A DNA stretch of 64,000 nt from NCBI GenBank assembly GCA_965261135.1, contig OZ253443.1, positions 2,416,841 to 2,480,840 of the forward strand. Reading direction: 5' to 3'. How positions within the stretch are numbered: the stretch's first letter is position 1; each line of letters starts with the position of its first letter. Of this stretch, positions 4,084 to 50,341 are shown piece by piece. The DNA is from Acidimicrobiia bacterium (lineage in GTDB: Bacteria; Actinomycetota; Acidimicrobiia; Spongiisociales; ZC4RG35). A program made the position numbers and the translations under genes. The notes beneath the pieces were generated by a model. That model had not been told where the DNA came from. It made no database searches and worked only from the letters and a program-made list of their open reading frames with translations.

Positions 4084-4418
4084 CGGTTCCGGTCCTCCCC
4101 GGAACGGCGTCTCCGCCGCTCTGCGGCGTCTCGTTTGATCCTGACGATCTTTTTCCGGGTCCGCTCGTAGGCTCGGGGGTTGGATTCCCAGGCGCTGCGG
4201 TAGTCGAAGGTTCCGTCGTGGCCACAAGAAAGCTCGTTCGAATCGCCGGCCACGGGAAGCTGATTGCGGCATCGGAACAGAGCGGTGCAGAGATCGTGGC
4301 GGTCGCGATACGGACAGCGGGTGAGGGAGGACTCCTCGGCATGGGAAACGATGTCCGAGAAGATCGCAGCCATGCGGTCCAGCCGCTCCTGGTAGGCCTG
4401 CTTTTCGGAGTCGGACAT
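4080..4418 (-). CDS. hypothetical small Cys-containing protein (112 aa) inside the methyltransferase operon
   Basis: ATG at 4416-4418 lies 11 nt after the corrinoid-protein stop. Its TGA (4080-4082) overlaps the GTG of the activator gene (GTGA). Four Cys in CPYRDRHDLCTALFRCRN...SCGHDG. Arg-rich C-terminal tail. Confidence 0.45.
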   Translation of the reverse strand: MSDSEKQAYQERLDRMAAIFSDIVSHAEESSLTRCPYRDRHDLCTALFRCRNQLPVAGDSNELSCGHDGTFDYRSAWESNPRAYERTRKKIVRIKRDAAERRRRRSGEDRNR

Positions 4419-4429
4419 ATCTGTCCTGT

Positions 4430-5179
4430 TCAGTTGACCTCGACGGCTAGCTTCTTGGCCAGTTCCACGCAGGCGAGCGCGTCCTTGCCGTAGCCGTCGG
4501 CGCCCACGTCCTTGCCGAACTCGGGGGTTACCGGAGCGCCTCCAACCATGAACCGCACCGAGCCCCGCAAGCCGGCGTCCTTGAAAGCCTCCACCGTTTT
4601 GGCCATGTTCGGCATGGTCGTGGTCAGCAAAGCGGACATGCCGATCAGATGAGCGCCGTGGGTTTCCACCGCGGCGATGAACTCGCCCGGGGAGGTGTTA
4701 ACGCCGAGGTCAATCACCGCGAACCCACCACCGCGCAGCAGCATGATGCACAGGTTCTTGCCGATGTCGTGCAGGTCGCCTTGTACGGTGCCCATGATCA
4801 CTGTGGCGATGGGTTCAACTCCCGACGCGGCCAGGATCGGCTCGATGTGGGCCATCCCGGCTTTCATCGCCCGCGCAGACACGAGAACTTCCGGAACGAA
4901 CACGTACCCCTCACGGAACTTGATGCCGACTATCCCCATCCCGGCGATGAGCCCATCGTCCATGATCTCACCGGCGCCCACCCCCCTGTCGAGGGCTTCT
5001 CTGGTAAGTTGATCGACGGTGATGTTGTCCCCATCGATCAGAGCAGCGGCGATGTCCTGCATAGCAGGCGACACCCGGCAGAAGAGGACTATGTTCCTCT
5101 CGATCTCTTCGGGCCGCTCGAGGAACTCCTCGATCTCGGAGCGGATGAACTCGTTGGCTATGTCAGATAACTCAGCCAT
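4430..5179 (-). CDS. corrinoid (cobalamin-binding) protein, MtaC/MtvC-like
   Basis: 249 aa. B12-binding Rossmann domain with DxHxxG motif (GDLHDIGKN) and an N-terminal helical cap. Confidence 0.75.
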   Translation of the reverse strand: MAELSDIANEFIRSEIEEFLERPEEIERNIVLFCRVSPAMQDIAAALIDGDNITVDQLTREALDRGVGAGEIMDDGLIAGMGIVGIKFREGYVFVPEVLVSARAMKAGMAHIEPILAASGVEPIATVIMGTVQGDLHDIGKNLCIMLLRGGGFAVIDLGVNTSPGEFIAAVETHGAHLIGMSALLTTTMPNMAKTVEAFKDAGLRGSVRFMVGGAPVTPEFGKDVGADGYGKDALACVELAKKLAVEVN

Positions 5180-5224
5180 GGAATGGGTGGATGGTCGATG
5201 TGTGTGGTTGCAATGGGCGCATCA

Positions 5225-6292
5225 TCACTCCGTTTCAGCCGCCGGTGTCTGCGGAGGAGGATCGTGAACGACTAGCCGACCGTCGGGTCGGTGCGTGTTG
5301 GAGTAGTCGCGGGCCGAGTTTGTCAGCGCCCGGAGCACCTCCATCTTGGTTCCTAGCGGCACCGAGCCCTCCGGGGCGATCCCGTTGACCCCAGATTCGA
5401 GCACTTTCATGCACGCCTCGTAGGTGTCCTCATAAGTGCCGCTGAACAGGGTCGTAGGGTTGTTGATGTTGCCCATCAGCGACATGCGGTCCCCGGCGAT
5501 CTCTTTGGCGACGTAGGGATCGACCTGGGACTCGAAATGGAAACAGTCCCAACCCGCCTCGGCGAAGTAGTCGATCCGGTCGGTCGTCTCCCCACAGCAG
5601 TGAAAGATGCTCGGCCCACCCATTTCGACAGTCACCCCTTTGTGCATCTCGAGGAGAAAATCACGATACGTTTCAGGACTGACCAGCTCCCGGTTGGCGT
5701 GGTCGGCCCACATCACCGCGTCGGCGCCCGCTTCCAGTTGAGCGTGGGCCGACATCATGCATGCGGGAAGCAGCACTTCAAGATAGCGGCGGATCTTGTC
5801 CGGGTCGAGAATCGTATCCATGAGGAAATTCTCGATCCCGACGAGGTGGTACCCCACCGACCAGGGACCGTACACCTTCCCGACGATGCCGACATCGGGG
5901 TAACGCTTCCGGAGCAGTCTGATGGCGCCCAGCGCCGCTTCGAACGACGGCCGTTTCAGGTAGTCGGAAGGGATTTTGAAGTCTTCGGGGTCGGATAGCA
6001 CATGGTCGCTGGTAGCCGGCCAGTTGTCCACGGCTCCCCACCAAGTTGCCGCGTCGAGAGCGTCGGCTTCGAGTTGGGAATGGAATACCGGCATGATCGT
6101 GTCGAGACCGAGTTCTTCGTGGGCGGTGGCCGCCAGGCGGGCCATCTTCTCTGCGTCGAGATGCGCCTCGGGGAACCACGCGTCGGCGATTTCCATTGCA
6201 TCAAGGGTTACCACCGAGCTGAGTGTCATGGCAGGCACCTTGTCGACCCGCCCGCCGTACAGCGCGGACAGGAAACGGCGGCGTGGGGTCAT
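5225..6292 (-). CDS. substrate:corrinoid methyltransferase, uroporphyrinogen-decarboxylase (URO-D/MtaA/CmuA) family, MT1 type
   Basis: URO-D-fold sequence (FHCCGETTD, GIAPEGSVPLGT). Start trimmed to the ATG at 6290-6292 (MTPRRRFLSALYGG). The track ORF runs to 6514 with no intervening stop. Confidence 0.65.
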   Translation of the reverse strand: MTPRRRFLSALYGGRVDKVPAMTLSSVVTLDAMEIADAWFPEAHLDAEKMARLAATAHEELGLDTIMPVFHSQLEADALDAATWWGAVDNWPATSDHVLSDPEDFKIPSDYLKRPSFEAALGAIRLLRKRYPDVGIVGKVYGPWSVGYHLVGIENFLMDTILDPDKIRRYLEVLLPACMMSAHAQLEAGADAVMWADHANRELVSPETYRDFLLEMHKGVTVEMGGPSIFHCCGETTDRIDYFAEAGWDCFHFESQVDPYVAKEIAGDRMSLMGNINNPTTLFSGTYEDTYEACMKVLESGVNGIAPEGSVPLGTKMEVLRALTNSARDYSNTHRPDGRLVVHDPPPQTPAAETE

Positions 6293-6566
6293 CCACTCAC
6301 CGGTGAGCCGGGTGAAGTTCTCACCCCTTCTCTTTATCTTTGCAGGAGAGATAGCCGATCCTTTCCACGCGCTGGCCTCACCCGGACGACAGGATAGGGG
6401 GGTTTTCGAAAAGCGCTTACAGTTGGAGGATAACAACCGGGTGTGCTGCCCAATGACCCCTTGGGGGGAGAATCCCAGAGCTTCAACCTCGGTCTGGGGC
6501 ATCGCGGCGCTCACCCCAACTAATATCCACTAAGAAGCGCTTGCTCAGAGACAAGGAGTAATAACC

Positions 6567-7733
6567 ATGACACATGTCCCCGTATCCCATCTCACTTCGG
6601 ATGCCGAGCGTGCCCGACGCTACGCCGCCCTCCGGGAAGTCATGGCCGGCGCCGGCCACGATGCCTGGGTTATCTGCAGCCGCGGCGACGAGTTCGTGCG
6701 TGGACGGGTCCAGTACGTAAGCGACATCTTCCAGTGGGCGGGCCGTGGCTTCGTGGTGTTCCCCTCCTCGGGCGAGGCCATTTTCGTGGTCGACCCGCTC
6801 TGGGGTACCGGCTACGCCATGCAGGGCAGATGGCTCAACGACTACCGCCAGCCCGACAACGCCGGAGCGGAAATCGGAGCGATCCTTTCCGACCTTGGGG
6901 TGTCCAACGGAACCGTGGGAGTAGTGGGACTGGCCGACATCACCGCCGTTGCGGACTACAACGACATGCGCAATGCCCTCCCCAACGCCACCTGGCAGGA
7001 CGCCACCGACCTGTTCGATGACGTCCGGATGATCAAGAGCCAAGAGGAGATCGACGCCACCTACGAGACCGGCAAGATCGTGCGCCAGGTGTTCAGAGGG
7101 ATAGAGGCGGAAATACGCCCCGGTGTCCAGGAGCTCGATGTCCTCTCCGAGGCGCACCGACTGGCGCGTCAACTGGGCTGCATGGAGGGTATCGCCCTGA
7201 TGGGCCGCGCCCCCTTCGAGTGCTTCGGACCGGGAACCCGCGGAGTGATCGAGGAAGACGACATCATGGTGTTCGACCTGGAGTGGGGAGGCCCTTCAGG
7301 CTACTGGGTGGAGGTTCGCAGGGTGTACAGCTTCAAGCCTCCAACCGCTGAACAGCAGGCGTTCTGGGAGATGCGGGTGGAGAGCTTCGATGCCGTCGTG
7401 CAGGCAATGAAAGCTGGAGAGTCATCCAACACCGTCCTCGACGCTCGCGATCGGGTCTACGAAGCCTGGGGATATCCTTCGGCGAAGGGCATCAACTCCT
7501 ATACCGCCCACGGCATCGGCGTCGACTCCCTGGAACCGCCGTGGATACCGGGGAAGGAGCGGATCATGCAGGAGAACATGATCATCAACACCCATCCGGC
7601 GGTCCGAATCGACGACCCCGTGAAGGGCTCCATGCTGGGCGGGATCAGCATCGCCGACAACGTCCTGGTCACCGCGGACGGTCCGGTCCGGATGGTCGAT
7701 CAGGTCGACGAATGGATCGTGCTCGACTGCTGA
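6567..7733 (+). CDS. M24-family metallohydrolase (Xaa-Pro aminopeptidase/creatinase fold)
   Basis: N-terminal creatinase/prolidase-like domain plus C-terminal pita-bread domain with HGIGVD motif. AAGGAG Shine-Dalgarno precedes the ATG at 6567. Divergent from the methyltransferase operon. Confidence 0.6.
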   Translation: MTHVPVSHLTSDAERARRYAALREVMAGAGHDAWVICSRGDEFVRGRVQYVSDIFQWAGRGFVVFPSSGEAIFVVDPLWGTGYAMQGRWLNDYRQPDNAGAEIGAILSDLGVSNGTVGVVGLADITAVADYNDMRNALPNATWQDATDLFDDVRMIKSQEEIDATYETGKIVRQVFRGIEAEIRPGVQELDVLSEAHRLARQLGCMEGIALMGRAPFECFGPGTRGVIEEDDIMVFDLEWGGPSGYWVEVRRVYSFKPPTAEQQAFWEMRVESFDAVVQAMKAGESSNTVLDARDRVYEAWGYPSAKGINSYTAHGIGVDSLEPPWIPGKERIMQENMIINTHPAVRIDDPVKGSMLGGISIADNVLVTADGPVRMVDQVDEWIVLDC

Positions 7734-7927
7734 GCGCTTTCCCCCTTAAGTAAGAACCCCTCGACCGGCCGAGGCCGGGGCTCAGCGCTCCGGCCTCGCG
7801 TCGCGTTCGGGCGAAGTCTCCACTCCGACCTAGGCCCGCGGCGCATCTGCGCTGCGACATAGCCGTAGTCCGGCAGGTGGTTTTCCGAGGATGGACTTCC
7901 TGCGCCTAAAGGGCGTGAACGCCCCGT

Positions 7928-8677
7928 TCAGTCCGGATAGTTGTAATAGCTCCCTCGGAAATACCCCAGCGCGGGCCGGTCGGTTTCAGCCATCTCCATT
8001 TTCTCCACTTCACCCAGGTAGATAACATGGTCGCCGCCGTCATAGCCGGCGATCACCCGGCACTCGAACCGCGCTATGTAGTCAGAGAGGAGAGGAACCC
8101 CTCCCAAACCCGGCGACCAGGAAACTCCATCGAGTTTTTCTGCCCCGGAGAGATCGCTCCGAGTGAATCGTCGCGACACCGACTCCTGATCCGCCGAGAG
8201 AACATGCACCGCGTAGCGGGTGGCAGTGGACATGATGCGGTAGCTGTTGGTCTCCCGATCGATGCACACCAGAACCAAGGGCGGATCGAGAGAAACCGAT
8301 GTGAAAGAGTTGACCACCAGCGCGGTCGGGACAGAATCCTGATCGATGGAGGTGACCGCGTTAACTCCGGTCATGAACTGTCCGCAGGCCTTTCGGAACT
8401 CGTTGGTGTCTACAACGTCTCGAGCCGAGATTGGCTCATCGCTCTCCACGCTGTCGCCCAACCAACGGATCAGACTACCGACCCGACGAGCCGGAAAAGG
8501 AAGCCTCTCATCACCCTCCACACTGTGACCCAGCCTGCGAACCAGGTGCCCCACCCGACGAGCTGGAACCAAGACCCGCTCTTCCACCCCTATGCCGTCG
8601 CCAAGCTTGCGAACCAGACGCCTAACGTGCTGCGGCGAAGACGGAGATTCCTTGTTCGATTCCATACCGTTCTCCAT
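7928..8677 (-). CDS. flavin reductase (HpaC-like FMN-binding split barrel) with repeat-containing N-terminal extension
   Basis: C-terminal ~170 aa carry FRKACGQFMTGVNAVTS and VLVCIDRETNSY segments typical of NAD(P)H-flavin reductases. N-terminal ~75 aa are three degenerate 22-23 aa repeats. Confidence 0.6.
   Translation of the reverse strand: MENGMESNKESPSSPQHVRRLVRKLGDGIGVEERVLVPARRVGHLVRRLGHSVEGDERLPFPARRVGSLIRWLGDSVESDEPISARDVVDTNEFRKACGQFMTGVNAVTSIDQDSVPTALVVNSFTSVSLDPPLVLVCIDRETNSYRIMSTATRYAVHVLSADQESVSRRFTRSDLSGAEKLDGVSWSPGLGGVPLLSDYIARFECRVIAGYDGGDHVIYLGEVEKMEMAETDRPALGYFRGSYYNYPD
8431..8640 (-). repeat. three imperfect ~66-69 bp tandem repeats encoding the PARRVGxLVRRLGxSVEGDE units
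   Basis: Repeats visible at DNA level (ccgacgagccgg...gcgaaccag... reiterated) and in the protein as VRRLVRKLGDGIGVEE / ARRVGHLVRRLGHSVEGDE / ARRVGSLIRWLGDSVESDE. Confidence 0.55.
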
Positions 8678-8739: not shown

Positions 8740-9345
8740 CTATTTAGCCTCGATCCCTTCCCAAACCATGGCAGTGAAGGTGTCCGCCACCTCCTCAGCC
8801 GACAGCTTCCCTCGAGACGAATACCACTGATACGCCCAGGCGCACATGCCAATGATCCCCAACCCCACCACCCCTGCCTCCAGATCGGCTCTGATCCGGC
8901 CGGTTTGCTGACCCCTTTTCACCACGTTGAAGAAGATGTCCTCCATCTGGTCGCGCTTTGTTTTGACCTCGACGAATCCCTCCTCGGTCAGAAACCTTCG
9001 CTCGCCGAGGAAAACCGCCACATGAGATCGGTAATGCTCCACCGCCTCCACCGCGGTCCCTATGAGGCCCCGGAGTTGTTCCCCGGGATCGTCTGTGGAG
9101 GCCAGCACCGCCTGCACCGCAGCCAACTGATGATCGATGTACTCGTCATGAATGACCCGAAGCAACTCTTCCTTGCTGACGAAGTGGTAATAGAAAGCCC
9201 CTTTGGTCAGACCGGCGTCATCAACAATCGACTGCACCGAGGTGGCCGCGAACCCGTTGCGTTCGAACAGCTTGCGAGCGCTGGACACCAACGCCTGACG
9301 GGTGGCGGTGGTCGAATACTTCCTCTTGCTCCCGGACACTGACAC
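8740..9345 (-). CDS. TetR/AcrR-family transcriptional regulator
   Basis: HTH segment TRQALVSSARKLFERNGFAATSVQSIVDDAGLTKGAFYYHF. Start placed at GTG 9343-9345 because the upstream acyl-CoA synthetase ends at 9356. GTG at 9339 or 9354 are alternatives. Confidence 0.6.
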   Translation of the reverse strand: MSVSGSKRKYSTTATRQALVSSARKLFERNGFAATSVQSIVDDAGLTKGAFYYHFVSKEELLRVIHDEYIDHQLAAVQAVLASTDDPGEQLRGLIGTAVEAVEHYRSHVAVFLGERRFLTEEGFVEVKTKRDQMEDIFFNVVKRGQQTGRIRADLEAGVVGLGIIGMCAWAYQWYSSRGKLSAEEVADTFTAMVWEGIEAK

Positions 9346-9355
9346 TTGCCGCACT

Positions 9356-10921
9356 CTACCCGGTCGAGACCGGGGCTTCCCCGGCCTGGGCCAACCTGCT
9401 CTTCTCTTCCCGTTCCTTGAGGACGGTTTTGAGCACCTTGCCGGTGGGGTTGCGGGGAAGCCCTTCCATAAACTCCACATAGCGCGGCATCTTGAAGCCT
9501 GCCAGATGCCCTCGACAGTGGGAGATCAACTGATCAGCGGTGAGTTCCATTCCCCTGTGCAACACTACAAACGCCTTGGGAGTCTCGACCCACTTGGGGT
9601 GCGGGACACCTACCACCGCCGCTTCATATACGGCCGGGTGCTGGTAGATGGCTTCTTCAATCTCAGAGCTGGCGATATTCTCGCCGCCACTTCGGATCAT
9701 GTCTTTCAAACGGTCGATCACATACAGATAGCCATCCTCGTCAAAGCGGCCTATATCACCGGAATGAAACCACCCATTGCGATGGGCGGCAGCCGTCGCC
9801 ACCGGATCCCGCCAGTAGCCGGGCCCCACGGTGGGACCGCGCATCACGATCTCTCCCAGCTCACCCACCGGCGCCGGGGCCCCGGACTCGTCCACCACTC
9901 GGATGTCCACCCGCGGCATGGGTCGTCCCACCGAACCGGTCTTGGAAAGCATGTGAGCCTCATCCAGATAGGACACCCCGTTGCAAGTCTCGGTCATCCC
10001 GTAGCCTTCGATCAGACGGGCTTTGGGAAATACCTCGCGGGTCTCGTGGTAAAGAGACTCCGGCACTTGGCTGAAGATCAGCCACTTGACAGAGTCGGTG
10101 TCGTAATCCTTGCGATCCTCCAGTTTCCTGATCAGATGCACCATGGTGGCCACCATCACCATCCCGGTGATCCGCTCCCTGGTGACCACCTCCAAGATCC
10201 GCCGCGCGTCGAACCGCCGCAGAAGGATCATGGTGGCCCCCACATACCAGGTCCCAAAGCCGGGGATGTCCAGCCCGCCCACGTGATAGAGAGGCGCGAA
10301 GTTGAGGATCCGGTCATCACGGGTGAGCCCCAACTCCACCACTTGGGCGTCCATGTTGGCGTTGGAGTTACCGTGGGTGATCATGGCCCCCTTGGGACGG
10401 CTGGTGGTGCCCGAGGTGTACAGGATCCGCTGGAGATCGTCGTCGCTTCTGTGCACGGTTTTCACCCGCTCCCCGGCATGGGCCTCCAGAAGCTGGTGAT
10501 AACCTACCCAGCCTTCGGGGACCGTGGGAGAGAGTGAAAGCAGGTGTTGAACTTCCGACAGACCTGCGCAGATAGAGGAAACCACCTCGAAAAACTCATC
10601 TTCGGTTGCTACAACCACCGCTCCCGAGTGCCCGAGCAGATAGTCGAGTTCCCTTTGGTGAAGACCGGTGTTGAGAGGAAGGAACACCCCTCCGATCTTG
10701 GCCACCGCCAGGGTGGTGTTCAGATAAGAGGGAGAGTTGCGGGCCACCAACGCCAGCATGTCACCCTCCCCCAAGCCAATCGAGAGCAACCCGGCGGCTA
10801 CCGCGTTCACTTCATCGTCGAGCTCCGCATAGGTCCACTCCTGGTCTTCATAGATCAGAGCGGTCCTGGTCTCGTGGCGATACCGATTCCAGTCCAGAAT
10901 CTGGGCCAGGTTGGCAGTCAT
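9356..10921 (-). CDS. AMP-dependent acyl-CoA synthetase/ligase
   Basis: AMP-binding signature YTSGTTSRPKGAMITHGN and C-terminal GK...L motif region. 521 aa. Confidence 0.8.
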   Translation of the reverse strand: MTANLAQILDWNRYRHETRTALIYEDQEWTYAELDDEVNAVAAGLLSIGLGEGDMLALVARNSPSYLNTTLAVAKIGGVFLPLNTGLHQRELDYLLGHSGAVVVATEDEFFEVVSSICAGLSEVQHLLSLSPTVPEGWVGYHQLLEAHAGERVKTVHRSDDDLQRILYTSGTTSRPKGAMITHGNSNANMDAQVVELGLTRDDRILNFAPLYHVGGLDIPGFGTWYVGATMILLRRFDARRILEVVTRERITGMVMVATMVHLIRKLEDRKDYDTDSVKWLIFSQVPESLYHETREVFPKARLIEGYGMTETCNGVSYLDEAHMLSKTGSVGRPMPRVDIRVVDESGAPAPVGELGEIVMRGPTVGPGYWRDPVATAAAHRNGWFHSGDIGRFDEDGYLYVIDRLKDMIRSGGENIASSEIEEAIYQHPAVYEAAVVGVPHPKWVETPKAFVVLHRGMELTADQLISHCRGHLAGFKMPRYVEFMEGLPRNPTGKVLKTVLKEREEKSRLAQAGEAPVSTG

Positions 10922-14047: not shown

Positions 14048-14881
14048 ATGCCAAACGAATATACGGACTTCTCCCCGACCGGAGAAACGGTGAACTCCCC
14101 TTTGCAGATCGAGCAGCGCTCGGCTTCGCGCTGGCTGCGGATGAATCGGCCGGGATCCGCCAATGCCCTATCTCCCGACCTGGTTTCGGCCATCGACCTG
14201 GCCCTCACCCAAGCCCAGTCCAGCCCCGACACCAGAGCCGTGGTAGTCACCGGCGTCGGCCCTGTCTTCTGCGGAGGAGCGGACGTGACAGTTGCCGGGG
14301 CCATGCTGGACAGCAAGCAACCCGAACACCTGGCCGCCTACATGGAAGAGGCCAACAACCTCTTGGACCGGATCGAGGACTTTCCCCTGCCGGTGATCGC
14401 GGCGGTGAACGGTGCGGCCTTCGCAGGAGGTCTCGAGTTGGTGCTGGCCTGCGACCTGGCAGTGGCCGCCTCCACTGCGCCCATTGGAGATGCCCACGTT
14501 CGCCACGGCTTCGTTCCAGCCTGGGGAGCGAGCTGGAGACTTCCGGCAGCCCTGGGCCCCGCCCGTGCCGGGCGGTTGATGTTGACCGGAACCGCCCTCA
14601 CCGCCGCCGACCTTCCGGAGATGTTCGCCGCAGTGGTTCCCCCTCACGATCTGGAGAGAGAAGTGATGGCGCTGATCGGAGAAATCGTTTTGTCCAGCCC
14701 GACGGCTATCACCGAAATCAAAAGGCTCTTGGTCTCCGACCGCTCCGCACGGGCCGCCTCTCGGCGCAGGGAATGGAATGCTCTGGAGCGCCAACTGGGA
14801 ACTTCGGATCTGGCCGAGGGATTCGCCGCCTTCCGAACCGGCCGCCGACCCGTTTTCAGCCGCGCTTCCGACCTTCTCTAA
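14048..14881 (+). CDS. enoyl-CoA hydratase/isomerase (crotonase fold)
   Basis: LRMNRPGSANALSPDLVSAIDLAL and VTGVGPVFCGGADV. Start trimmed to the ATG at 14048 (MPNEYTD) to avoid overlap with the convergent gene. Confidence 0.65.
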   Translation: MPNEYTDFSPTGETVNSPLQIEQRSASRWLRMNRPGSANALSPDLVSAIDLALTQAQSSPDTRAVVVTGVGPVFCGGADVTVAGAMLDSKQPEHLAAYMEEANNLLDRIEDFPLPVIAAVNGAAFAGGLELVLACDLAVAASTAPIGDAHVRHGFVPAWGASWRLPAALGPARAGRLMLTGTALTAADLPEMFAAVVPPHDLEREVMALIGEIVLSSPTAITEIKRLLVSDRSARAASRRREWNALERQLGTSDLAEGFAAFRTGRRPVFSRASDLL

Positions 14882-14892
14882 CCTCCGCGCCC

Positions 14893-15873
14893 ATGAAATT
14901 CGGGATCCTGCTTAATCATCAGTTTTCGCGAGAGGATTTGCTGGCAACCCGGCTGGAGGAGGCCGTGGAACAGGTTACCGCCGCCGCTGAACTGGGACTC
15001 GACTCGATATTCGGGATACATCACTACCTTGCTCGTTTGCAGACCCCCCAGCCCCTGACGCTCTTGGCGCGCCTCATCCCGGTCTCCGGAGACATGGAGT
15101 TGGGAACGGGGGTTTACATCAGCACCATGGCCCATCCCGTTCACATCGCCGAGGAGGTGGCCACTCTCGACCAACTGTCAGGTGGCCGGGTGATACTGGG
15201 AGTGGGCGCCGGATATCGACGCGACGAATTCCACAGCTTTGGTGTGAACTCCAAGACCAAGGGTAAGCGGTTCGTGGAGTCTCTGGAGGTGCTCAGGGCA
15301 CTCTGGTCGGGCAAGCCCGTGACCTACGAGGGAGAGTTCTATCGGCTGGAAGACCAGACCATCAGCATTCCTCCCGCCCAACCCGGCGGTCCTCCCCTGT
15401 GGATAGGCGCCAACGCTCCTGGCACCATCCTGCGCGCAGCTCGGATCGGCGACGCCTGGCTTCCCTCCCCCAATGTGAAACCGCGCTGGGCGATCGGCAA
15501 TCTGGAATCCTTCCGCCAGGAGGCAGAGGCTCATGGTCGGCTCGATCAGATCAGGCGATACCCGATTCTGAGGGAGATGTACGTCTCCACCGACCGCGCC
15601 CAAGCCGAGAAGGAGGCAGGGCGCTACATCAGGGATGAATACCTCCATTATTCCGGCTACCGCCTCGAATTCTTCGACACCATGTTCGACGACCTGCGGC
15701 AAAAGGCCTTTCTGTGGGGTTCGCCCGATGACATTGCAGCCGGGATAGACAACCTGGCCCAAGCCGGGTTCGATCACTTCATGTTCCGGATGTCCTGGCT
15801 GGGAATGCCGTTCTCGCTCACCATGAGAAGCCTCGAACTCTTGGCCCGAGAGGTCATCCCCCGCTTTCGGTAG
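14893..15873 (+). CDS. LLM-class oxidoreductase (copy 1 of tandem duplicate)
   Basis: Begins MKFGILLNHQF. ~80% identical to the ORF at 16069-17046. Start at the ATG 14893. Confidence 0.7.
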   Translation: MKFGILLNHQFSREDLLATRLEEAVEQVTAAAELGLDSIFGIHHYLARLQTPQPLTLLARLIPVSGDMELGTGVYISTMAHPVHIAEEVATLDQLSGGRVILGVGAGYRRDEFHSFGVNSKTKGKRFVESLEVLRALWSGKPVTYEGEFYRLEDQTISIPPAQPGGPPLWIGANAPGTILRAARIGDAWLPSPNVKPRWAIGNLESFRQEAEAHGRLDQIRRYPILREMYVSTDRAQAEKEAGRYIRDEYLHYSGYRLEFFDTMFDDLRQKAFLWGSPDDIAAGIDNLAQAGFDHFMFRMSWLGMPFSLTMRSLELLAREVIPRFR

Positions 15874-15879
15874 GGTCGC

Positions 15880-16057
15880 CATGCCTTTGGGACCGGTCCA
15901 TCCGGTCTCGATTCCAGTAACCGATCTGGACCGATCCAAAGCCTTCTTAAGGAATGACCTGGGGTCAAATGGGACCTTGACGATCTGGCCGAGGGGATAG
16001 CCACCTTTGGATCTGGCCGGCCGACCCGGTTTCAGCCGCGCTTGCGACCTTCTCTAA
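15880..16057 (+). pseudogene. junction stubs of the duplication: truncated VOC 5' fragment and crotonase 3'-tail copy
   Basis: 15887 onward reads MPLGPVHPVSIPVTDLDRSKAF..., a degenerate, prematurely terminated copy of the VOC N-terminus at 17054. 15960-16057 is a degraded copy of the crotonase C-terminal coding tail. Confidence 0.5.
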
Positions 16058-16068
16058 TGTCGGTGCCC

Positions 16069-17046
16069 ATGAAGTTCGGGATCCTTCTCAGCAATCAATA
16101 TCCGCGGACCGATTCGCTGGCCACTCGTTTGCAAGAGACCGTGGAATTCGTTACCGCCGCTGCGGAACTGGGTTTCGACTCGGTGTTCGGCGTACATCAC
16201 TACCTGGGCCGCTTGCAGATCCCCCAGCCTTTGACGTTGCTGGCGCGCCTCATCCCGGCTTCGGGAGACATGAAGTTGGGAACCGGAATCTTCATCAGCA
16301 CCTTGGCCCATCCCGTTCACATCGCCGAAGAGGTGGCTACCCTCGACCAACTCTCGGGAGGCCGGGTCATTCTGGGAGTTGGCGCCGGATATCGCAACCA
16401 TGAGTTCCAAAGCTTCGGAGTGGACTCCAAGACTGTCGGCAGGCGGTTCGTCGAATCCCTGGAGGTGCTGCGGGCGTTGTGGTCGGGAAACCCCGTGTCC
16501 CACCAGGGAGAGTTCTTTCAACTCGTGGACCAGACCATCAGCGTTCCCCCTGCACAACCCGGCGGGCCTCCCCTCTGGGTAGGCGCCGGCGTTCCGGCAA
16601 CCATTCTTCGCGCGGCGCGGATCGGTGACGCCTGGCTTCCCTCACCCCACGCAAAGCCGCGCTGGGTCATCGGAAATCTGGAGAACTTCCGCCAAGAAGC
16701 GGCGGCTCATGGACGTCTGGAGCGGATCCAAAGCTATCCGATTATCAGGGAAACCTACGTCTCGACCAACCGCGCCCAGGCCGAAAGAGAGGCGGGGCGC
16801 TTTATCAGGGACGAGTACGTCGACTACTCCCGTTATCTCGAATTCTTCGGCGCCATGTTCGAGGACCTGCGTCAGAAGGCATTTCTGTGGGGATCGCCCG
16901 ACGACATAGCAGCAGGGATAGACAATCTTGCCGCGGCCGGTTTCGATCACTTCATCTTCCGCATGTCTTGGCTGGGGATGCCCTTCTCTCTAACCATGAG
17001 CAGCCTCGAGATGATGGCCAGAGAAGTCATTCCCAGATACCGGTAG
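16069..17046 (+). CDS. LLM-class oxidoreductase (copy 2 of tandem duplicate)
   Basis: MKFGILLSNQYPRTD... Paralog of 14893-15873. Confidence 0.7.
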   Translation: MKFGILLSNQYPRTDSLATRLQETVEFVTAAAELGFDSVFGVHHYLGRLQIPQPLTLLARLIPASGDMKLGTGIFISTLAHPVHIAEEVATLDQLSGGRVILGVGAGYRNHEFQSFGVDSKTVGRRFVESLEVLRALWSGNPVSHQGEFFQLVDQTISVPPAQPGGPPLWVGAGVPATILRAARIGDAWLPSPHAKPRWVIGNLENFRQEAAAHGRLERIQSYPIIRETYVSTNRAQAEREAGRFIRDEYVDYSRYLEFFGAMFEDLRQKAFLWGSPDDIAAGIDNLAAAGFDHFIFRMSWLGMPFSLTMSSLEMMAREVIPRYR

Positions 17047-19476: not shown

Positions 19477-20328
19477 CTACCCCAGGGTGACGGTGTCAAA
19501 ATCGTTGGCCACTATCACCTCTCCGGTGTAACCACCGCAGCGGACATCGTCCACAAAACCCTGCCGATCCTCCTCGGTGACCGGCTCCGGGATGAGGTGG
19601 GTCAGCACCAGAGTTGGTATCTCAAGTTCTTGGGCTTGGGCTCCTATTAGCACTGTGTCGGCGTGATAGTCCAGCACAAAGTGCAAGTGCTCAGGACGAG
19701 CCCGGATCAGCTCGAAGCGCATCGCCTCGTAGACAAGAACATCGGCTCCGCCGGCCAGAGCAGCCATCTCGGGGCACACCAAGGTGTCACCACTGATAGC
19801 CACCACTCCGGCAGGCGTTTCCACCCGATACCCCACCGCCGGGAAGACCGGCTCATGCCGCACCGGCCCTGCTAACACCCGAACCTCGCCCTTCGACCAG
19901 ACTTCGATCAAAGAATTTCCGATCTCAAACGGCGTCACTTCGAGGCCAGGGCGGGTCCCCCTACAGGTATGGGCGCTCCGCACCTCCAAATCATGCTCCC
20001 AGGGGTCGAGCATCCTCTCTAAGAAGTCCGTCGCCGGCCCGGCAGGCGCCAAGATCGGAAGAGGCGGCGCCTCGTCGAGCCGGTCCATAATCCACCGCGA
20101 CATCACCAGATCCTCCAAACCACTGACATGATCACTGTGATGATGGGTGACAAACACCGCATCCAAGTCAACCGGCGAAACCCCGCAACTCGCCAGACGC
20201 ATAGAAGTCGCCCGTCCCGCATCGAACTGCAACGCCACTCCCTCCGACCGCACCAGCACCCCCGGCCCCGCCCGATCCGGCGAAGGAACCGGCATCCCAG
20301 TTCCGGTGATTGTCGCCGACGTGACCAT
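19477..20328 (-). CDS. MBL-fold metallo-hydrolase
   Basis: HxHxDH motif VFVTHHHSDHVSGL. Start trimmed to the ATG at 20326-20328. Confidence 0.65.
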   Translation of the reverse strand: MVTSATITGTGMPVPSPDRAGPGVLVRSEGVALQFDAGRATSMRLASCGVSPVDLDAVFVTHHHSDHVSGLEDLVMSRWIMDRLDEAPPLPILAPAGPATDFLERMLDPWEHDLEVRSAHTCRGTRPGLEVTPFEIGNSLIEVWSKGEVRVLAGPVRHEPVFPAVGYRVETPAGVVAISGDTLVCPEMAALAGGADVLVYEAMRFELIRARPEHLHFVLDYHADTVLIGAQAQELEIPTLVLTHLIPEPVTEEDRQGFVDDVRCGGYTGEVIVANDFDTVTLG

Positions 20329-20354
20329 GTCTTGCTGTCTACTCTGCAGTTTCG

Positions 20355-20876
20355 CTATCGGACATCGTGAAAGGACTTGAACATTTCGCTCACATCTCTG
20401 TTGTTCCCTTGGCACAGCTGATCGAAAGCTGATGGCCCCATATTTCCCGGTTCCAATAGGAGCATGGTTGTCTTGGCTGGATCTCCTAGGTCAAGGGCCC
20501 GCACGATCCCAACGATCTGCATGAGGCGCTCCACGTTAGAGGCACTAGGGCTTTTACCTTGTGCCCAAAAGTGCAAGGACCGACGCTGTACGCGCAATGC
20601 TTGCGCAAGTTGTGTCCAAGTCAGTTCGGTCTTGCTCCTGAGTTCCGCTAAGGCACGTTGGCTGGACAGTGGTTCGTGAAGATAGGTACGGCCGTATGTT
20701 GTTCCAATCCCTATTAGCAGGAAAGAACCTTTTTGGTTGTCCGTAAAGGCAGCCCCACTGTTTGTGCCAATAGCTGTCCAAGTGGAGAGAACACCGCTTG
20801 GTCCAGTATCTGTATGCAAAACCGGGTTCTGGCCAATCTGGGATCCTCCCAACAAGAACGGGATTCCTACGTTCAA
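20355..20876 (-). CDS. hypothetical protein with Gly/Thr-rich N-terminus and central XRE-like HTH
   Basis: 173 aa. The only in-frame start before the HTH (LRSKTELTWTQLAQALRVQRRSLHFWAQGKSP) is TTG at 20874-20876, which overlaps the TGA of the upstream gene (TTGA). GGTGG SD 6 nt upstream. GC ~50% vs ~65% background. Confidence 0.45.
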   Translation of the reverse strand: MNVGIPFLLGGSQIGQNPVLHTDTGPSGVLSTWTAIGTNSGAAFTDNQKGSFLLIGIGTTYGRTYLHEPLSSQRALAELRSKTELTWTQLAQALRVQRRSLHFWAQGKSPSASNVERLMQIVGIVRALDLGDPAKTTMLLLEPGNMGPSAFDQLCQGNNRDVSEMFKSFHDVR

Positions 20877-21700
20877 ACTGCACCACCATATTGGCGGAGC
20901 AGATCAGGGCGCACAGCCCACCGGAAGAACCGATAGATGTGTTCCGCGAAACTGGCCCCTATTGAAATCACCTGATCGACATCGAATCTGCTGACCTGGG
21001 TTGTGTACATGTCAAGATCCAGGATCCAGGAGGGAGAAGCGATGGTTTCTCCATGAAGGGGATCGAGTTGTGCATTAGAGGGGAGCCATCCCCAGCGTCC
21101 GTGAAACGTAGCGTTCCCGATTCGATAGGATGTGTCGGAGACGCTATGTACGAGTTCCGCGCCCTCACCCGGGTTGACTGTGACCACGCCTAGCATTTCG
21201 GGTTTGACAAGGGCACCAAGGTTCATCTCGATCTCATCGAGACGAACCCGATCCACGTAGCGGATACCGACCCGATCGTAAGTGGAGGGAGCAATGGTGG
21301 CCGCCAGCGCATCGATGACTGCGTGAAGCCGCCTGAGAAAGTCGATCCTACTTTCGTACTCAGACGTGTCGAGTGCAACAAATGACGGCGCCAAGGAGAC
21401 TTTCCAGGCTGGATTTGTCGGGCGGTCAAGAAACCGCCAGATCGGATTGGACTGACCTGCGGAACTGACACCCTCCTGAGTGAGAACGATGTTCGCCTCA
21501 CGCTCTTGGCGTAAAACGGGATAGTCCGCTCGGATCCTCTCTTGGAAAGGCCCGATGAACTCCTCCCGCGTGATCGACACAATGGGCGGAAACCTGACCT
21601 GTGCCACAACAGCGACCAGAGGTGCTGATGAGAGTGGGATCTCCTCAACAGGTTCCCCAAACGGAGTCTGCAAATCTAACGCGGCGGTCACACTCCCCAT
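20873..21700 (-). CDS. hypothetical protein (recalls the uncharacterised TIGR04255-type family; unverified)
   Basis: 276 aa from the ATG at 21698-21700 (MGSVTAALDLQTPFGEP..., APLVAVVAQVRFPPI segment). GC ~55%. Translationally coupled to the downstream HTH gene. Confidence 0.4.
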   Translation of the reverse strand: MGSVTAALDLQTPFGEPVEEIPLSSAPLVAVVAQVRFPPIVSITREEFIGPFQERIRADYPVLRQEREANIVLTQEGVSSAGQSNPIWRFLDRPTNPAWKVSLAPSFVALDTSEYESRIDFLRRLHAVIDALAATIAPSTYDRVGIRYVDRVRLDEIEMNLGALVKPEMLGVVTVNPGEGAELVHSVSDTSYRIGNATFHGRWGWLPSNAQLDPLHGETIASPSWILDLDMYTTQVSRFDVDQVISIGASFAEHIYRFFRWAVRPDLLRQYGGAV

Positions 21701-21769
21701 TTTAATCACTTCGCGATCCCTCCCGGAGTGTGTAGTATTGTGTGAAATAGAAGAAAGGAGGTGAAAACC

Positions 21770-21895
21770 ATGGCAACTCGGAAAGTCCACCGCTCCGCGG
21801 TGTCGGGCCGCTTCGTAAAGCCCTCGACAGCTAAGCGACACCCTCGCACCACCATCACCCAGACCATCAAAACGTCAAAGAAGAAGGGCAAGTAA
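21770..21895 (+). CDS. unannotated 41-aa highly basic small ORF with strong Shine-Dalgarno
   Basis: AAAGGAGGTGA then an 8-nt spacer then ATG. MATRKVHRSAVSGRFVKPSTAKRHPRTTITQTIKTSKKKGK. Divergent from the 20873-21700 gene. Below the ORF-track length cutoff. Confidence 0.3.
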   Translation: MATRKVHRSAVSGRFVKPSTAKRHPRTTITQTIKTSKKKGK

Positions 21896-22094
21896 AGAGA
21901 GTCAGGCAACCAAACCGCCATCACAGAATGAGGAGAGGCCCGCAACAACCGTAACAGGAGTGTCGCGAAGCCTTGCCGAGCGGCCCGGTTCCCTGATCCC
22001 TACGAGGCATCTCAACGAAGCCGAATCACTTGCCCAGCAAGAGGTGGGATGACTTTCATCCCAGCCGTCAGCCATACACCAGAAAGGAAGCGAT

Positions 22095-22382
22095 ATGACA
22101 CAATACGAATATAACGGCGAAACATTCTTCATCGATGACGCGGCAGACACCTGTGAAATCAAGGTTTCCGACAAGACCAATACCGTATCCATCACTCTGA
22201 ATCAAAACGGGGCTAGCACCTACAGAGTATCCACAATTGAGGGCAACTGGTGGTGGCACACCAGCACAGTTGAGGAATCTGTCAACAGAGCATGTCGGGT
22301 GTTGATTGACTATGAAAAGGCTACTCCTTCGGAAGAAGCTTGTGCGGATATGCACAAATTTGTAAAGAATCTCCCTGCCTAA
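22095..22382 (+). CDS. hypothetical 95-aa protein, low-GC orphan
   Basis: GC ~45% in a ~65% genome. SD-like gaaaggaag before the ATG. No recognisable motif. Confidence 0.4.
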   Translation: MTQYEYNGETFFIDDAADTCEIKVSDKTNTVSITLNQNGASTYRVSTIEGNWWWHTSTVEESVNRACRVLIDYEKATPSEEACADMHKFVKNLPA

Positions 22383-22601
22383 CAGCTCTCATCAGATAGA
22401 TCTGGGGTTTGATAGCTTGGAGGAAACGGAATATCTTTGACCCCCGTGAGGACGATTACCAATCACCGCCAGGTTTCAGCCCTAAACGCTGTGCGCACAA
22501 TACTTGGAATAAAATGGTGCCCGTGGATCGGAGCCTTTCTTGAAGGCTGGAGCCTATCAGGGCTCCCTACGCCCCATGGCTTCATCGGACGGAGCGGCGT
22601 C

Positions 22602-24152
22602 TTAGGTCTTCTCTAGACCCCTGAACTTGGCTCTTCCTGCGTCACGGAGCCATCTTTTCATTACTTTGCCGGAGTCGTTGCGGACTAGGGCATCCACTAT
22701 CTCGAAGTGCTTGGGAACTTTGAACTTGGCGAGGTTGGCGCGGCAGTGGGCGGCTAGTTCTTCTTCGGTTACAGTCATCCCGGGGAGCGCCACCACGAAG
22801 GCCTTGGGCACCTCGTCCCAACGCTCATCCGGTACTCCTACAACTGCAGTCTCCGCCACTGCGGGGTGCTTGGCGAGGATTCGCTCGATTTCGGCGCTGG
22901 CTACGTTCTCTCCACCGCTTTTGATCATGTCCTTCTTGCGGTCCACGAACCACATATAGCCCTCGGCGTCGATGCGGCAGATGTCACCGGAATGAAACCA
23001 CCCGTCGCGGAAGGCGGCGGCGGTCTCTTCGGGATCGTTCCAGTAGCCCGGCGACACTTTGGGTCCGCGGGCGATTAACTCTCCGGGCTCCCCGGGCGGC
23101 GCCGGTCGGCCTGCGTCGTCCACTATCCGAAGATCGATGTTGGCAAAGGGCCTCCCCACAGATCCTATTTTGTCGGGAGGAGGGTTGGCCTCTAGGTAGG
23201 CGGCGCCGTTGGTCAGTTCGGTCATGCCATAGGCCTCCGACAGCCGCACGTGAGGCAAGGTCTCCTGGAAACGGCGATAGACCGGTGCGGGCAGCCCTCC
23301 GAAGATGATCCACTTCAGCGACGAGAGGTCGTATTGATCTCGGTCTTCCATCCTCATGATCTCGTGGATGATCTGAGCGGCCAGCACCCCTCCCGCCACC
23401 TTCTCCTTCGCCACCAGCTTCACGATCTCCCGGCCCGCATAGCTATGAACGACCACCAGGGTCGCTCCGATGTACAGAGCGGTGAGTCCGGGGACATCCA
23501 ATCCGCTGACATGAAAGAGCGGCGCCGAGAGCATGACCCGGTCGGAAGGGACCATTTCCATTTCCAGGATCTGGCCCAGTTGGTTCCAGATCACGTTTCC
23601 GTGGGTGGTGATCACTCCCTTGGGATGGCTGGTGGTGCCCGAGGTGTAAAGGATGCGAGCCAGATCATCAAGGCCCATCTGCGCGTCGGGAACCACCGCT
23701 CCTGCGGCGGCAGCCATCATTTCCTCGTAGATGTGCCAGCCGGGCAGTCCTTGGTCGGCATGGGTAATGACATGACGGATAGCGGGCGAGGAAGCAAGAG
23801 TCTCGCTTGCCTTGTCGTGGAACCGTTGATCGACAACCAGTCCCACCGCTCCGGAATGGTTGAGGATGTAGATCAGCTCGCGGGGATGAAGACGCCAATT
23901 GAGAGGGATAAAGGCCGCTCCGATCCGGTTGATGGCCAGGATCTCGATCAGGTAGCGATAGGAGTTGTCGGCCAGGATGGCGATTATGTCTTCCCTCCCA
24001 TATCCAAGGTCGGACAGTCCCTGGGCCATCTCGCTAACCGCTGCGTCCAGTTGAAGGTAGGTGAGCCGCATCTCCCCGTCCACCACCGCTTCCTTGTCGC
24101 CGAAGCGATGTTTGTTGCGCTCCAACAGACGGCTGAGGTTGGCGGTGGGCAT
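22602..24152 (-). CDS. AMP-dependent acyl-CoA synthetase/ligase
   Basis: YTSGTTSHPKGVITTHGN AMP-binding motif. 516 aa. Confidence 0.8.
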   Translation of the reverse strand: MPTANLSRLLERNKHRFGDKEAVVDGEMRLTYLQLDAAVSEMAQGLSDLGYGREDIIAILADNSYRYLIEILAINRIGAAFIPLNWRLHPRELIYILNHSGAVGLVVDQRFHDKASETLASSPAIRHVITHADQGLPGWHIYEEMMAAAAGAVVPDAQMGLDDLARILYTSGTTSHPKGVITTHGNVIWNQLGQILEMEMVPSDRVMLSAPLFHVSGLDVPGLTALYIGATLVVVHSYAGREIVKLVAKEKVAGGVLAAQIIHEIMRMEDRDQYDLSSLKWIIFGGLPAPVYRRFQETLPHVRLSEAYGMTELTNGAAYLEANPPPDKIGSVGRPFANIDLRIVDDAGRPAPPGEPGELIARGPKVSPGYWNDPEETAAAFRDGWFHSGDICRIDAEGYMWFVDRKKDMIKSGGENVASAEIERILAKHPAVAETAVVGVPDERWDEVPKAFVVALPGMTVTEEELAAHCRANLAKFKVPKHFEIVDALVRNDSGKVMKRWLRDAGRAKFRGLEKT

Positions 24153-46692: not shown

Positions 46693-47079
46693 TTACCAAA
46701 GGACGCCGGTGCCGAAATGCCTGAAGGCGGCGTCTCTGGTTACCAGGGTCAGCAATTCCATGTCAGCCTGGGCGGCCAGCATCCGATCGAAGGGATCACG
46801 GTGATCCACTGAATAGGTCCCAGCTCTCAGACAATGCAGGTAGTTGACTGCGAGATGTTGAAACCCATCCGCTTGTACCAAGTCGTGGAAGCGGCGCACG
46901 GCGTCGGGAGCATGGTCAAGGCGCCCCAGGCGCCGCAGCGTTGCGATCTCCCAGGCACTGGCCGCGCTCACGTACACCTCGGATGCCGAATCGGCGATAG
47001 CGCTCCTGGCTCGTATCGAAAGACTGGAATTGTCGGTCCACCACCACAACAGCACATGGGTATCGAGCAGCAGCCGCAT
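46693..47079 (-). CDS. vapC: PIN-domain ribonuclease toxin, VapC family
   Basis: MRLLLDTHVLLWW... with the conserved acidic residues of the PIN fold. 128 aa. Directly downstream of the antitoxin remnant. Confidence 0.75.
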   Translation of the reverse strand: MRLLLDTHVLLWWWTDNSSLSIRARSAIADSASEVYVSAASAWEIATLRRLGRLDHAPDAVRRFHDLVQADGFQHLAVNYLHCLRAGTYSVDHRDPFDRMLAAQADMELLTLVTRDAAFRHFGTGVLW

Positions 47080-47267
47080 TATCTCCGTTCCCAGGCGTCG
47101 AGCTCGGTCTGTGGCAGAGGATCGAGTATCTCGGGACCGACGAACTGGTCCGAGAGCCGTCCGGGGCGGCGGGCGGCCTCGGGTGGGGGAAGGGGCCCCA
47201 GCACCGCGTAGGGCTTGCCTGCTTTGGCGAGGATGATCTCCTCCCCGGCATGAGCGCGATCCAACAA
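47079..47267 (-). pseudogene. 3' portion (62 codons) of a Phd/YefM-type antitoxin gene, severed from its 5' end by an IS insertion
   Basis: Reads (L)DRAHAGEEIILAKAGKPYAVLGP..., the conserved core of Phd/YefM antitoxins. It lacks the N-terminal beta-strand. The only in-frame start is the TTG at 47265-47267, inside the target-site duplication. Confidence 0.55.
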
Positions 47268-47271
47268 TTTG

Positions 47272-48618: not shown

Positions 48619-48672
48619 CAACAATTTGGACAGATGCGTCTTCGCTTGGTGGACGTTCACGATCGAAGTCAT
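48619..48672 (-). pseudogene. stranded 5' end (18 codons) of the antitoxin gene with its SD
   Basis: Minus strand reads AAGGAGGAGAAAGCC-ATG ACT TCG ATC GTG AAC GTC CAC CAA GCG AAG ACG CAT CTG TCC AAA TTG TTG (MTSIVNVHQAKTHLSKLL). This joins in frame to DRAHAGEE... at 47267 once the IS is removed. Confidence 0.6.
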
Positions 48673-48810
48673 GGCTTTCTCCTCCTCTTAGTCTGCCTGT
48701 GGACTTATCTATAGGTAATATTAGCTAAGTCTATAAACTAAGGTATCTATTCGGGTCCTGCCAAGGGAAGCCCCGCTTCTTCTTGCCTTGGAGGCAGCCG
48801 GGCATATCAC

Positions 48811-48893
48811 AAGCCGGGGGTCTTCGGATGCTCCGGTGCACAAACGGCAATTCCCATAGCCGTCAAGCCCGCTCCGATCACTTCAACTGGCAA
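48811..48893 (-). pseudogene. degenerate duplicate of the eamA 3' end
   Basis: ~85% identical over ~80 nt to 50346-50425 (C-terminal codons and stop of the EamA gene), but with in-frame stops and an indel. Confidence 0.45.
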
Positions 48894-48904
48894 AAGCGAT
48901 TTGC

Positions 48905-49912: not shown

Positions 49913-49919
49913 GAGTTCC

Positions 49920-50276: not shown

Positions 50277-50341
50277 AGACTCCTCCTTCAACTGGCAATC
50301 CACGCTATCAGGGCCCTGTGACAGGCCGCCGGGGTTTGAAC

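Follow-up and report, generated by a model that had tools for sequence, protein, structure and literature searches.

A foreign low-GC islet in an Acidimicrobiia defence hotspot carries what is probably a truncated copy of a three-gene cassette with a proposed toxin-antitoxin-like role

Defence islands, and hotspots in which variable cargo is held between conserved core genes, are an established concept, and among toxin-antitoxin (TA) systems three-component operons are known in the form of omega-epsilon-zeta, paaR-paaA-parE and the TAC system. Together with the RES-Xre systems (MbcT-MbcA, ParT-ParS), these are the closest described counterparts of the locus that we analyze here. It lies in a stretch of 64,000 nucleotides (hereafter the window) from an Acidimicrobiia bacterium (assembly GCA_965261135.1, contig OZ253443.1, positions 2,416,841 to 2,480,840), where an islet of ~2.3 kb fills positions 20329-22601, the interval from the start codon (20328) of a gene for a metallo-beta-lactamase (MBL)-fold hydrolase to the stop codon (22602) of an acyl-CoA synthetase gene. 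The islet holds two overlapping minus-strand genes, which we call gene 1 and gene 2, and two small genes for proteins of 41 and 95 amino acids (aa). The reading we favor, to which we assign a probability of about 0.72, is that this islet is a small foreign mosaic in a defence hotspot, that its main cargo is a truncated three-gene cassette, and that the intact form of this cassette is a TA-like or abortive-infection module.

Gene 1 encodes a full-length member of the TIGR04255 family. With the NCBIfam model, whose cut-off is 30 bits, its product scored 138 bits (E = 4.8e-40) over model positions 2-249 of 252; it spans positions 4-270 of 270 in the family profile that we built, and the public entry for the protein, P0001, begins three codons upstream, at a GTG at 21709. 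There was no match for it in Pfam or PADLOC. Among 5.8 billion proteins, the best homologue beyond the source genome's own entry was 67-68% identical. This homologue (loci L001-L004) belongs to a 70%-GC genome, has a GC content of 59-64% itself and lies between short-chain dehydrogenase genes and an RNase J gene; it is followed, through a 4-bp overlap, by a gene 2 homologue 56% identical to that of the window. An AlphaFold2 (AF2) model of gene 1 reached a predicted local distance difference test score (pLDDT) of 91.9 and resembled TFIID-like viral proteins in BFVD, with likeness to solved structures at fold level only. Neither a RES or ADP-ribosyltransferase (ART) fold or domain nor a recognizable toxin fold was found in gene 1, and a full-text literature search under the family names returned no paper on the TIGR04255 family.

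Gene 2 begins at a TTG that overlaps the TGA stop codon of gene 1 (TTGA, 20873-20876). Its protein belongs to a family with an Xre-type helix-turn-helix (HTH) domain, in which 25 of 31 homologues matched HTH_3 and 12 of the 31 matched PF20432 (Antitoxin Xre-like HTH). A profile of these 31 members matched MbcA of M. tuberculosis (PDB 6fkg_C; E = 7.8e-6), profile positions 86-172 aligning with MbcA residues 18-108, so that both the HTH and the C-terminal toxin-binding region of MbcA are covered. One homologue also matched TIGR02293, weakly and under the family cut-off (4.8e-4), and a Pfam search for the toxin-binding domain family (DUF2384/MbcA-like) gave no match at E ≤ 0.05 in any of the 31 members. 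Literature searched for MbcA, Xre and DUF2384 yielded nothing beyond known work on RES-Xre systems.

Elsewhere these two genes belong to a larger unit. A scan of metagenome contigs with TIGR04255 matched at least 497 stretches, and 80 loci were compared. Among these 80, one viral locus and L002, gene 2 lay directly downstream of gene 1 in 67; in 63 of these, a start codon for gene 2 is placed so that the two genes overlap by 4 bp, an arrangement that the window shares. Clustering of the neighboring open reading frames (ORFs) revealed a third conserved gene of ~255-290 aa (~285) directly after gene 2. We defined the cassette from the 57 loci in which the sequence downstream of gene 1 extends for 1700 bp or more, and gene 3 was present in every one of them, in 49 with an HTH gene of the window's type and in 8 with a more divergent HTH gene in the same architecture. 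Its protein carries the motifs WRQGD and TQTCD and the invariant residues Q22, G23, D24, C70, D119, R155 and R159.

The complete cassette measures ~2.4 kb and its GC content is 6-10 points below that of its host, across hosts of 44-70% GC. It was found in several phyla, on chromosomes, on conjugative plasmids (11 plasmids matched) and on one IMG/VR contig, and the operons on RefSeq plasmids are annotated as TIGR04255 family protein, transcriptional regulator and hypothetical protein. On pCHRO.01 the cassette adjoins a tyrosine recombinase gene, and on Sinorhizobium plasmid B it adjoins an IS110 element. Its neighbors at other loci include DrmA (3e-267), type I and type III restriction-modification genes, a GajB-like helicase, a SIR2 protein (PDC-S65), a CBASS-type effector and RmrA, and it is also often found among housekeeping genes with no mobility gene nearby. 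In locus L125, for example, the cassette (3760-7328; 36-39% GC) stands in a 44%-GC genome with no mobility gene within 5 kb. The genes flanking it there resemble what we take to be ribose-phosphate pyrophosphokinase and signal peptidase genes, and the genome is presumably cyanobacterial, judging by its composition and genes.

Compared with these intact copies, the cassette in the window stops short. Its gene 2 protein aligned only to positions 32-174 of the 227 in the family profile, full-length homologues being ~215-240 aa long, and it lacks the conserved basic C-terminal tail (~50 aa) that is kept in 58 of 58 other complete copies. Only 26 bp separate the end of the gene from the MBL start codon, and it is here that homology with related genomes breaks off. 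Searches for gene 3 in all six frames of the window gave a best tblastn E value of 1.1 and a best profile hidden Markov model E value of 2.4. We also considered that the tail of gene 2, or gene 3, might be hidden in another reading frame, and discarded this after the all-frame searches were negative. Since gene 3 is missing and gene 2 stops ~50 codons early, we regard the window's copy as a 3'-truncated remnant of the cassette. The simplest reading is that one deletion or illegitimate recombination event at the edge of the hotspot removed the 3' third of the cassette.

The strongest competing explanation is that gene 1 and gene 2 form an intact and functional two-gene TA system, with a TIGR04255 toxin encoded ahead of an Xre/MbcA-like antitoxin in the toxin-first order of higBA, and with gene 3 as an optional accessory. 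That gene 1 is full length with all its invariant residues, and that gene 2 keeps its HTH, its MbcA-like region and its 4-bp coupling, would fit such a system, as would addiction logic, which predicts that gene 1 is kept along with an antitoxin-like gene 2 if gene 1 is the toxin. However, the constancy of gene 3 and of the gene 2 tail across all the loci in which they were assessed leaves no example of a two-gene variant, TIGR04255 has no recognizable toxin fold, and gene 2 ends 26 bp from the start codon of the MBL gene, exactly at the homology break. We therefore consider a functional two-gene system unlikely.

What the intact cassette does can be approached from its homologies and surroundings. 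Most likely it would work as a toxin-antitoxin-like or abortive-infection defence module, a role that we infer, along with the identity of the effector and deletion as the cause of the truncation. This reading is suggested by the MbcA-like gene 2, the tight translational coupling of all three genes and the defence-island neighborhoods, and also by the low GC content of the cassette relative to its hosts and its carriage on conjugative plasmids and one IMG/VR contig. In the proposed scheme, the HTH protein encoded by gene 2 would repress the operon and neutralize an effector, and gene 3, downstream of the antitoxin-like gene 2, would occupy the toxin position. Deletion or illegitimate recombination in the hotspot would have removed gene 3 together with the last ~50 codons of gene 2, and the loss of gene 3 appears to be tolerated here, as might be expected of a toxin and not of an antitoxin. 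The copy that remains is probably a disarmed remnant, alongside which two foreign small genes would ride, the prophage/plasmid-type 41-aa gene and the cysteine-containing 95-aa gene.

A more specific and tentative proposal, which we think possible but doubtful, is that the operon represents an undescribed and widespread three-component TA or anti-phage system in which an MbcA-type regulator acts with non-RES partners, one with a TBP- or guanidino-kinase-like fold and the other a cysteine-motif protein lacking detectable relatives. If this were true, the window would hold a natural, disarmed deletion derivative, and would hint that gene 3 is a dispensable and dangerous effector. PADLOC v2 has no model for the cassette, and Pfam has none for two of the three genes. 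The MbcA/Xre link of the middle gene offers a testable hypothesis for a new TA or defence system.

Several observations weigh against the reading we favor. None of the cassette proteins matched the PADLOC v2 defence models, and searches of Pfam, NCBIfam, PADLOC and PDB sequences with homologues of gene 3 found nothing similar, and no RES or ART domain. The window's own gene 2 scored 24.5 bits against HTH_31 (3.3e-5), below the 27-bit Pfam cut-off. The defence neighbors listed above were hand-picked from ~13 long loci, about half of which have only housekeeping or unknown neighbors. Gene 1 retains every family-invariant residue, and so the remnant could still have some function. Lastly, the relatives compared below are related at the species level, and the source itself is apparently a metagenome-assembled genome (MAG).

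The place that the islet occupies could be defined through these relatives. A search with the MBL protein in species-representative genomes returned 42 loci, 14 of which were Acidimicrobiia MAGs with an MBL orthologue 77-91% identical to that of the window. In all 14, blastn homology to the window stops at 20313-20329, and alignment puts the break at the MBL start codon. One relative (L008) has both flanking genes (acyl-CoA synthetase, 90%; MBL, 83%) with 7.6 kb of other cargo between them, including Fic, McrBC and Macro-domain genes, and its homology on the right side ends no more than ~40 bp from the acyl-CoA synthetase stop codon. From these breaks at the MBL start codon and at the acyl-CoA synthetase stop codon, we delimit the islet as the space between two conserved genes. 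None of the four islet proteins was found within 10 kb on either side of the MBL orthologue in any of the 14 relatives.

Upstream of the MBL gene, the relatives carry other genes in place of the islet. These encode McrBC (AAA_5 and PF10117), a Macro-domain protein, a Fic protein, a GmrSD_N/AlbA_2 protein (GmrSD/HEC-05), an HTH-Peptidase_M78 pair, a 1450-aa DEAD-box helicase and an IS3 transposase. The conserved MBL flank with varying cargo, which in the relatives includes recognized defence genes, marks this site as a defence-island hotspot; the position directly upstream of the MBL hydrolase gene is thus a lineage-specific hotspot for defence and mobile genes. The islet proteins themselves had no match to PADLOC v2 models at E < 0.009. 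A recurrent arrangement was a divergent gene beside MBL for a Macro-domain protein (~356 aa; PF01661, 3e-41), seen in L042, L005, L016, L006, L008, L010 and L038 at ~8800-9890. In L012 the Macro-domain gene (6958-8034) stands ~2 kb further upstream, behind the HTH-M78 peptidase gene pair, and in the window it is absent, the islet occupying that position. In L005 (5257-6458 and 7812-8465), the orfA and orfB of an IS3-family transposase, which has an rve domain, lie within the hotspot beside a 217-aa McrB-like AAA_5 remnant, which suggests that a restriction system was disrupted there by insertion of an insertion sequence (IS).

The hotspot is also a breakpoint of synteny. In L015, a gene for an EamA transporter and the MBL gene are 30 bp apart (9966-9996); in the window they are 30 kb apart, with EamA at 50342-51235, and the 24 kb of native-GC metabolic genes between the islet and EamA are found elsewhere in relatives. 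The whole of 20329-50343 is thus a variable interval. One alternative is that the islet marks the edge of something larger, a mobile or rearranged segment of 30 kb that arrived or moved as a unit, perhaps through IS activity, with ISL3 transposase, PIN toxin and DUF4268 genes at its other end. Homology breaks at ~50341-50344 in five relatives, both ends of the interval are low in GC and constitute the two most deviant tetranucleotide regions of the window, and an ISL3 transposase gene lies near the far end, all of which would agree with such a unit in addition to the 30-bp spacing in L015. Yet the intervening 24 kb has a native GC content of 59-64% and is kept in relatives at 74-90% identity in other positions, which points to rearrangement of native DNA rather than import. 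Moreover, in L008 the acyl-CoA synthetase and LLM genes adjoin the hotspot just as they do in the window, with different cargo, and no repeats bracket the segment. We judge movement as a single 30-kb unit to be quite improbable.

Next to its surroundings, the islet is distinct in composition. The preliminary description had placed a low-GC islet in a chromosome of ~65% GC. Positions 20340-22600 do have a GC content of 53.5%, with 0.46-0.58 in 300-bp windows inside the islet, but the background is nearer 61% (61.3% across the window; 58-62% in the local flanks), so that the drop amounts to ~8 points, not 10-20. Across sliding windows of equal length the mean was 61.1% and the standard deviation 2.3%, putting the islet at z ~-3.3 and rank 2 of 1235; the minimum (0.533) begins at 20301 and is the same patch, making this the lowest-GC stretch in the 64 kb. 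The tetranucleotide L1 distance of the islet to the window was 0.345, compared with 0.209 ± 0.030 for 309 windows of the same size (z = 4.5), the largest deviation in the window and one that no other window of that size equalled. GC content at third codon positions was 0.54 in the HTH gene, 0.60 in the TIGR04255 gene and 0.53 in the 95-aa ORF, against 0.72 ± 0.07 in the window's long ORFs, but 0.74 in the 41-aa ORF, which is not deviant.

The suggestion, made originally from composition, that the islet was horizontally acquired is thus supported by three independent lines: its deviant composition, its absence from the 14 relatives, none of which carries an islet gene near the MBL orthologue, and the foreign character of its genes by homology and distribution. 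In keeping with the last of these, the flanking genes have orthologues at 83-92% identity, compared with 67-68% for the best TIGR04255 homologue. The opposite view, that this is a native region of ancestral, small and weakly expressed genes with relaxed codon usage that were lost in the sampled relatives, can draw on gene 1, in which GC at the first and second codon positions (0.63 and 0.45) is like that of native genes, on the moderate size of the GC drop and on the species-level distance of the relatives. It would nevertheless require the genes to have been lost from all 14 relatives and replaced there, at this one site, by cargo that differs from genome to genome, and is difficult to reconcile with a nearest TIGR04255 homologue only 67% identical in an unrelated context, with the sporadic occurrence of the cassette across phyla and plasmids, with a 41-aa gene of a prophage/plasmid family or with the tetranucleotide deviation. 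We regard a native origin as very improbable. Least credible of all is a chimeric join that placed foreign reads between the flanks during assembly, for even with relatives that are all MAGs, a source that is apparently one too and an abrupt switch in composition, the source contig is 2.79 Mb long, both junctions fall at gene boundaries with the flanking ORFs intact, and 14 genomes that were assembled independently vary at this site too.

The islet carries no mobility gene. In agreement with the preliminary description, which had noted no integrase, tRNA or flanking repeat, our tRNA, repeat and domain scans of the islet were all negative: the sole tRNA in the window is at 58789, with none within 36 kb of the islet; flanking direct or inverted repeats did not exceed chance level; and no recombinase domain was present in the islet ORFs. 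No Rfam family or terminator-like site was found in the islet, and a comparison of the islet with plasmids at the DNA level found no similarity. IS activity in the hotspot was seen in two places, in the ISL3 transposase gene at 47376-48569, 25 kb from the islet, and in the IS3 element of L005. The cargo may have been gained and lost by recombination within the hotspot, followed by deletion, and not by site-specific integration; we infer recombination and then deletion to be the most economical explanation.

The two small genes do not belong to the cassette. We considered them as cassette members and rejected this, as neither is present in the 85 TIGR04255 loci compared (L001-L004, L047-L127). 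Because these genes are unaccompanied by the cassette elsewhere, the islet is a mosaic put together from three pieces of foreign DNA, namely the gene 1/gene 2 pair, the 41-aa gene and the 95-aa gene. As an islet, it is an ordinary kind of feature.

The 41-aa ORF was described initially as a divergent ORF for a basic protein with a Shine-Dalgarno sequence, and AGGAGGTGA indeed precedes it. A word-index search and a tblastn search of phage genomes gave no match for this protein. Weak tblastn matches (E 0.2-1) were all to actinobacterial plasmids, e.g. pMM23 and a Pseudonocardia plasmid, where the motif HRSAx[ST]G[RK][FY]V..[ST]A.R[HN]P.TT[VI]T occurs in one or two copies per protein; the corresponding motif in the window is HRSAVSGRFV..STAKRHPRTTIT. 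As a regular expression, the motif had no chance match in the other loci (~1.2 Mb, six frames). Scanning IMG/VR with the motif alignment returned 68 loci with ORFs of median length 47 aa, most of them 33-55 aa long, basic and similar over their full length, such as MSKRAGKGKVTVNRSAISGRFVKASTAARHPKTTVTETRSKKSK, and these were often near genes for Xre-type repressors, M78 peptidases and integrases. The family lies outside the coverage of Pfam, NCBIfam and PHROGs. Since the motif family occurs on prophage contigs and plasmids, we conclude that the 41-aa ORF is a real gene of a prophage/plasmid small-protein family. The wider family shares the core motif [YH]RSA[IV][TS]GR[FY]V...A..[HN]P.TT[VI] (L136-L203; L128, 2144-2584; L129, 2381-2599), which on plasmids is sometimes tandemly duplicated and on prophage-like contigs is common near lysogeny-control genes.

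The 95-aa ORF was called an orphan of 45% GC in the preliminary description. The GC content holds (~46%), and the orphan status is ruled out, for at E ≤ 1e-3 the protein has 36 representative homologues, almost all ~90-105 aa long. Three cysteines are conserved in this rare but conserved small-protein family. The AF2 model (pLDDT 94.3) consists of a beta-meander followed by two helices, and a fold search with it gave no informative match. The homologues are solitary small genes in varied neighborhoods. The closest one with long context (L131, 5000-6400) sits in an islet of its own at 42-50% GC, next to genes of ~57-65% GC; that islet, which belongs to a sponge-type MAG, lies between metH and ABC permease genes and comprises four small genes, none with a match in Pfam. 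Both tiny-protein families thereby gain support as real, mobile-element-associated genes, although standard libraries missed them.

The coordinates of the islet and its flanking genes are collected in Table 1. The divergent intergenic region contains no consensus sigma-70 site. A perfect 8-nt inverted repeat, CACACTCC-N28-GGAGTGTG (21689-21732), spans the TIGR04255 start codon; we considered it as a significant operator palindrome of the divergent promoter and rejected this, as such a repeat is expected ~0.15 times by chance, which leaves it a weak operator candidate. At the right edge of the islet, 22383-22601 showed no convincing homology to the region downstream of the L008 acyl-CoA synthetase gene.

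Table 1. Genes and intervals of the islet and its two flanks (window coordinates).
Feature	Position	Strand	Evidence or remark
MBL-fold hydrolase gene, left flank	19477..20328	-	PF12706 4e-15; orthologues 77-91% identical in 14 relatives
Junction between gene 2 and MBL start codon, 26 bp	20329..20354	.	Putative deletion or recombination scar
Xre/MbcA-like HTH gene, 173 aa, cassette gene 2	20355..20876	-	HTH_31; family profile against MbcA
TIGR04255-family gene, 275 aa from ATG at 21700, cassette gene 1	20873..21700	-	TIGR04255 model
Divergent intergenic region between gene 1 and 41-aa gene, 69 bp; promoters presumed	21701..21769	.	Sequence
41-aa basic protein gene	21770..21895	+	Motif family; Shine-Dalgarno AGGAGGTGA in front
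95-aa protein gene, three conserved cysteines	22095..22382	+	Homologue family
Non-coding right edge of islet, 219 bp	22383..22601	.	No Rfam match, terminator or repeat
Acyl-CoA synthetase (AMP-binding) gene, right flank	22602..24152	-	PF00501 1e-83; 90% identical orthologue in L008

Elsewhere in the window, a second deviant patch at 46693-50270 has a GC content of 52-55% and ranks second in tetranucleotide deviation. Its genes include one for a VapC-type PIN toxin on the minus strand (46693-47079) and, upstream of this, a 62-aa ORF (47079-47267) that resembles the C-terminal part of Phd/YefM-type antitoxins and may be truncated at its N-terminus. These are followed by the ISL3 transposase gene (47376-48569), a DUF4268 gene (48905-49945) and a conserved 116-aa ORF (49920-50270) that is shared with the relative L011. 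On the other side of the islet, two adjacent ORFs at 14773-15873 and 16042-17046 cross-match each other's orthologues in relatives with 73-81% DNA identity and resemble a tandem duplication.

The comparison of relatives thus defines a hotspot in a poorly studied, uncultured Acidimicrobiia lineage. It has the MBL hydrolase gene on one side and an EamA or acyl-CoA synthetase gene on the other, and offers a place in which to look for more defence cargo.

Set against the systems named at the outset, the cassette shows both likenesses and differences. Gene 2 appears to be laid out in two parts as MbcA is, with a probable Xre-type HTH and, after it, a helical region to which the toxin-binding domain of MbcA aligns; in the intact cassette this antitoxin-like gene directly precedes another gene, as in xre-res, and the cassette is likewise small, sporadic and mobile. 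In contrast to RES-Xre systems, however, no RES/ADP-ribosyltransferase domain was found in gene 1 or gene 3, there are three genes with the extra TIGR04255 gene upstream (and, in the window's copy, no downstream partner), and gene 2 is twice the length of MbcA, with a ~70-aa N-terminal extension and a conserved basic tail. As gene 1 does not have the RES/ADP-ribosyltransferase fold, we place the cassette outside the RES-Xre family. With three-component TA operons the cassette shares a build of three small genes in close linkage, among which one encodes a DNA-binding regulator or antitoxin-like protein, but no sequence or fold relation to their toxins or chaperones.

The islet as a whole can be compared with two further kinds of feature. 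Like classical genomic islands it is deviant in GC content and oligonucleotide usage and absent from relatives, although it is only 2.3 kb long and lacks an integrase, a tRNA and flanking repeats. It differs from described defence islands in that the window's cargo matches no catalogued defence system and that the site has taken in 24 kb of native metabolic genes. It agrees with them in its conserved flanks, in cargo that varies between relatives and includes recognized defence genes at the same site, in its deviant composition and in needing no integrase.

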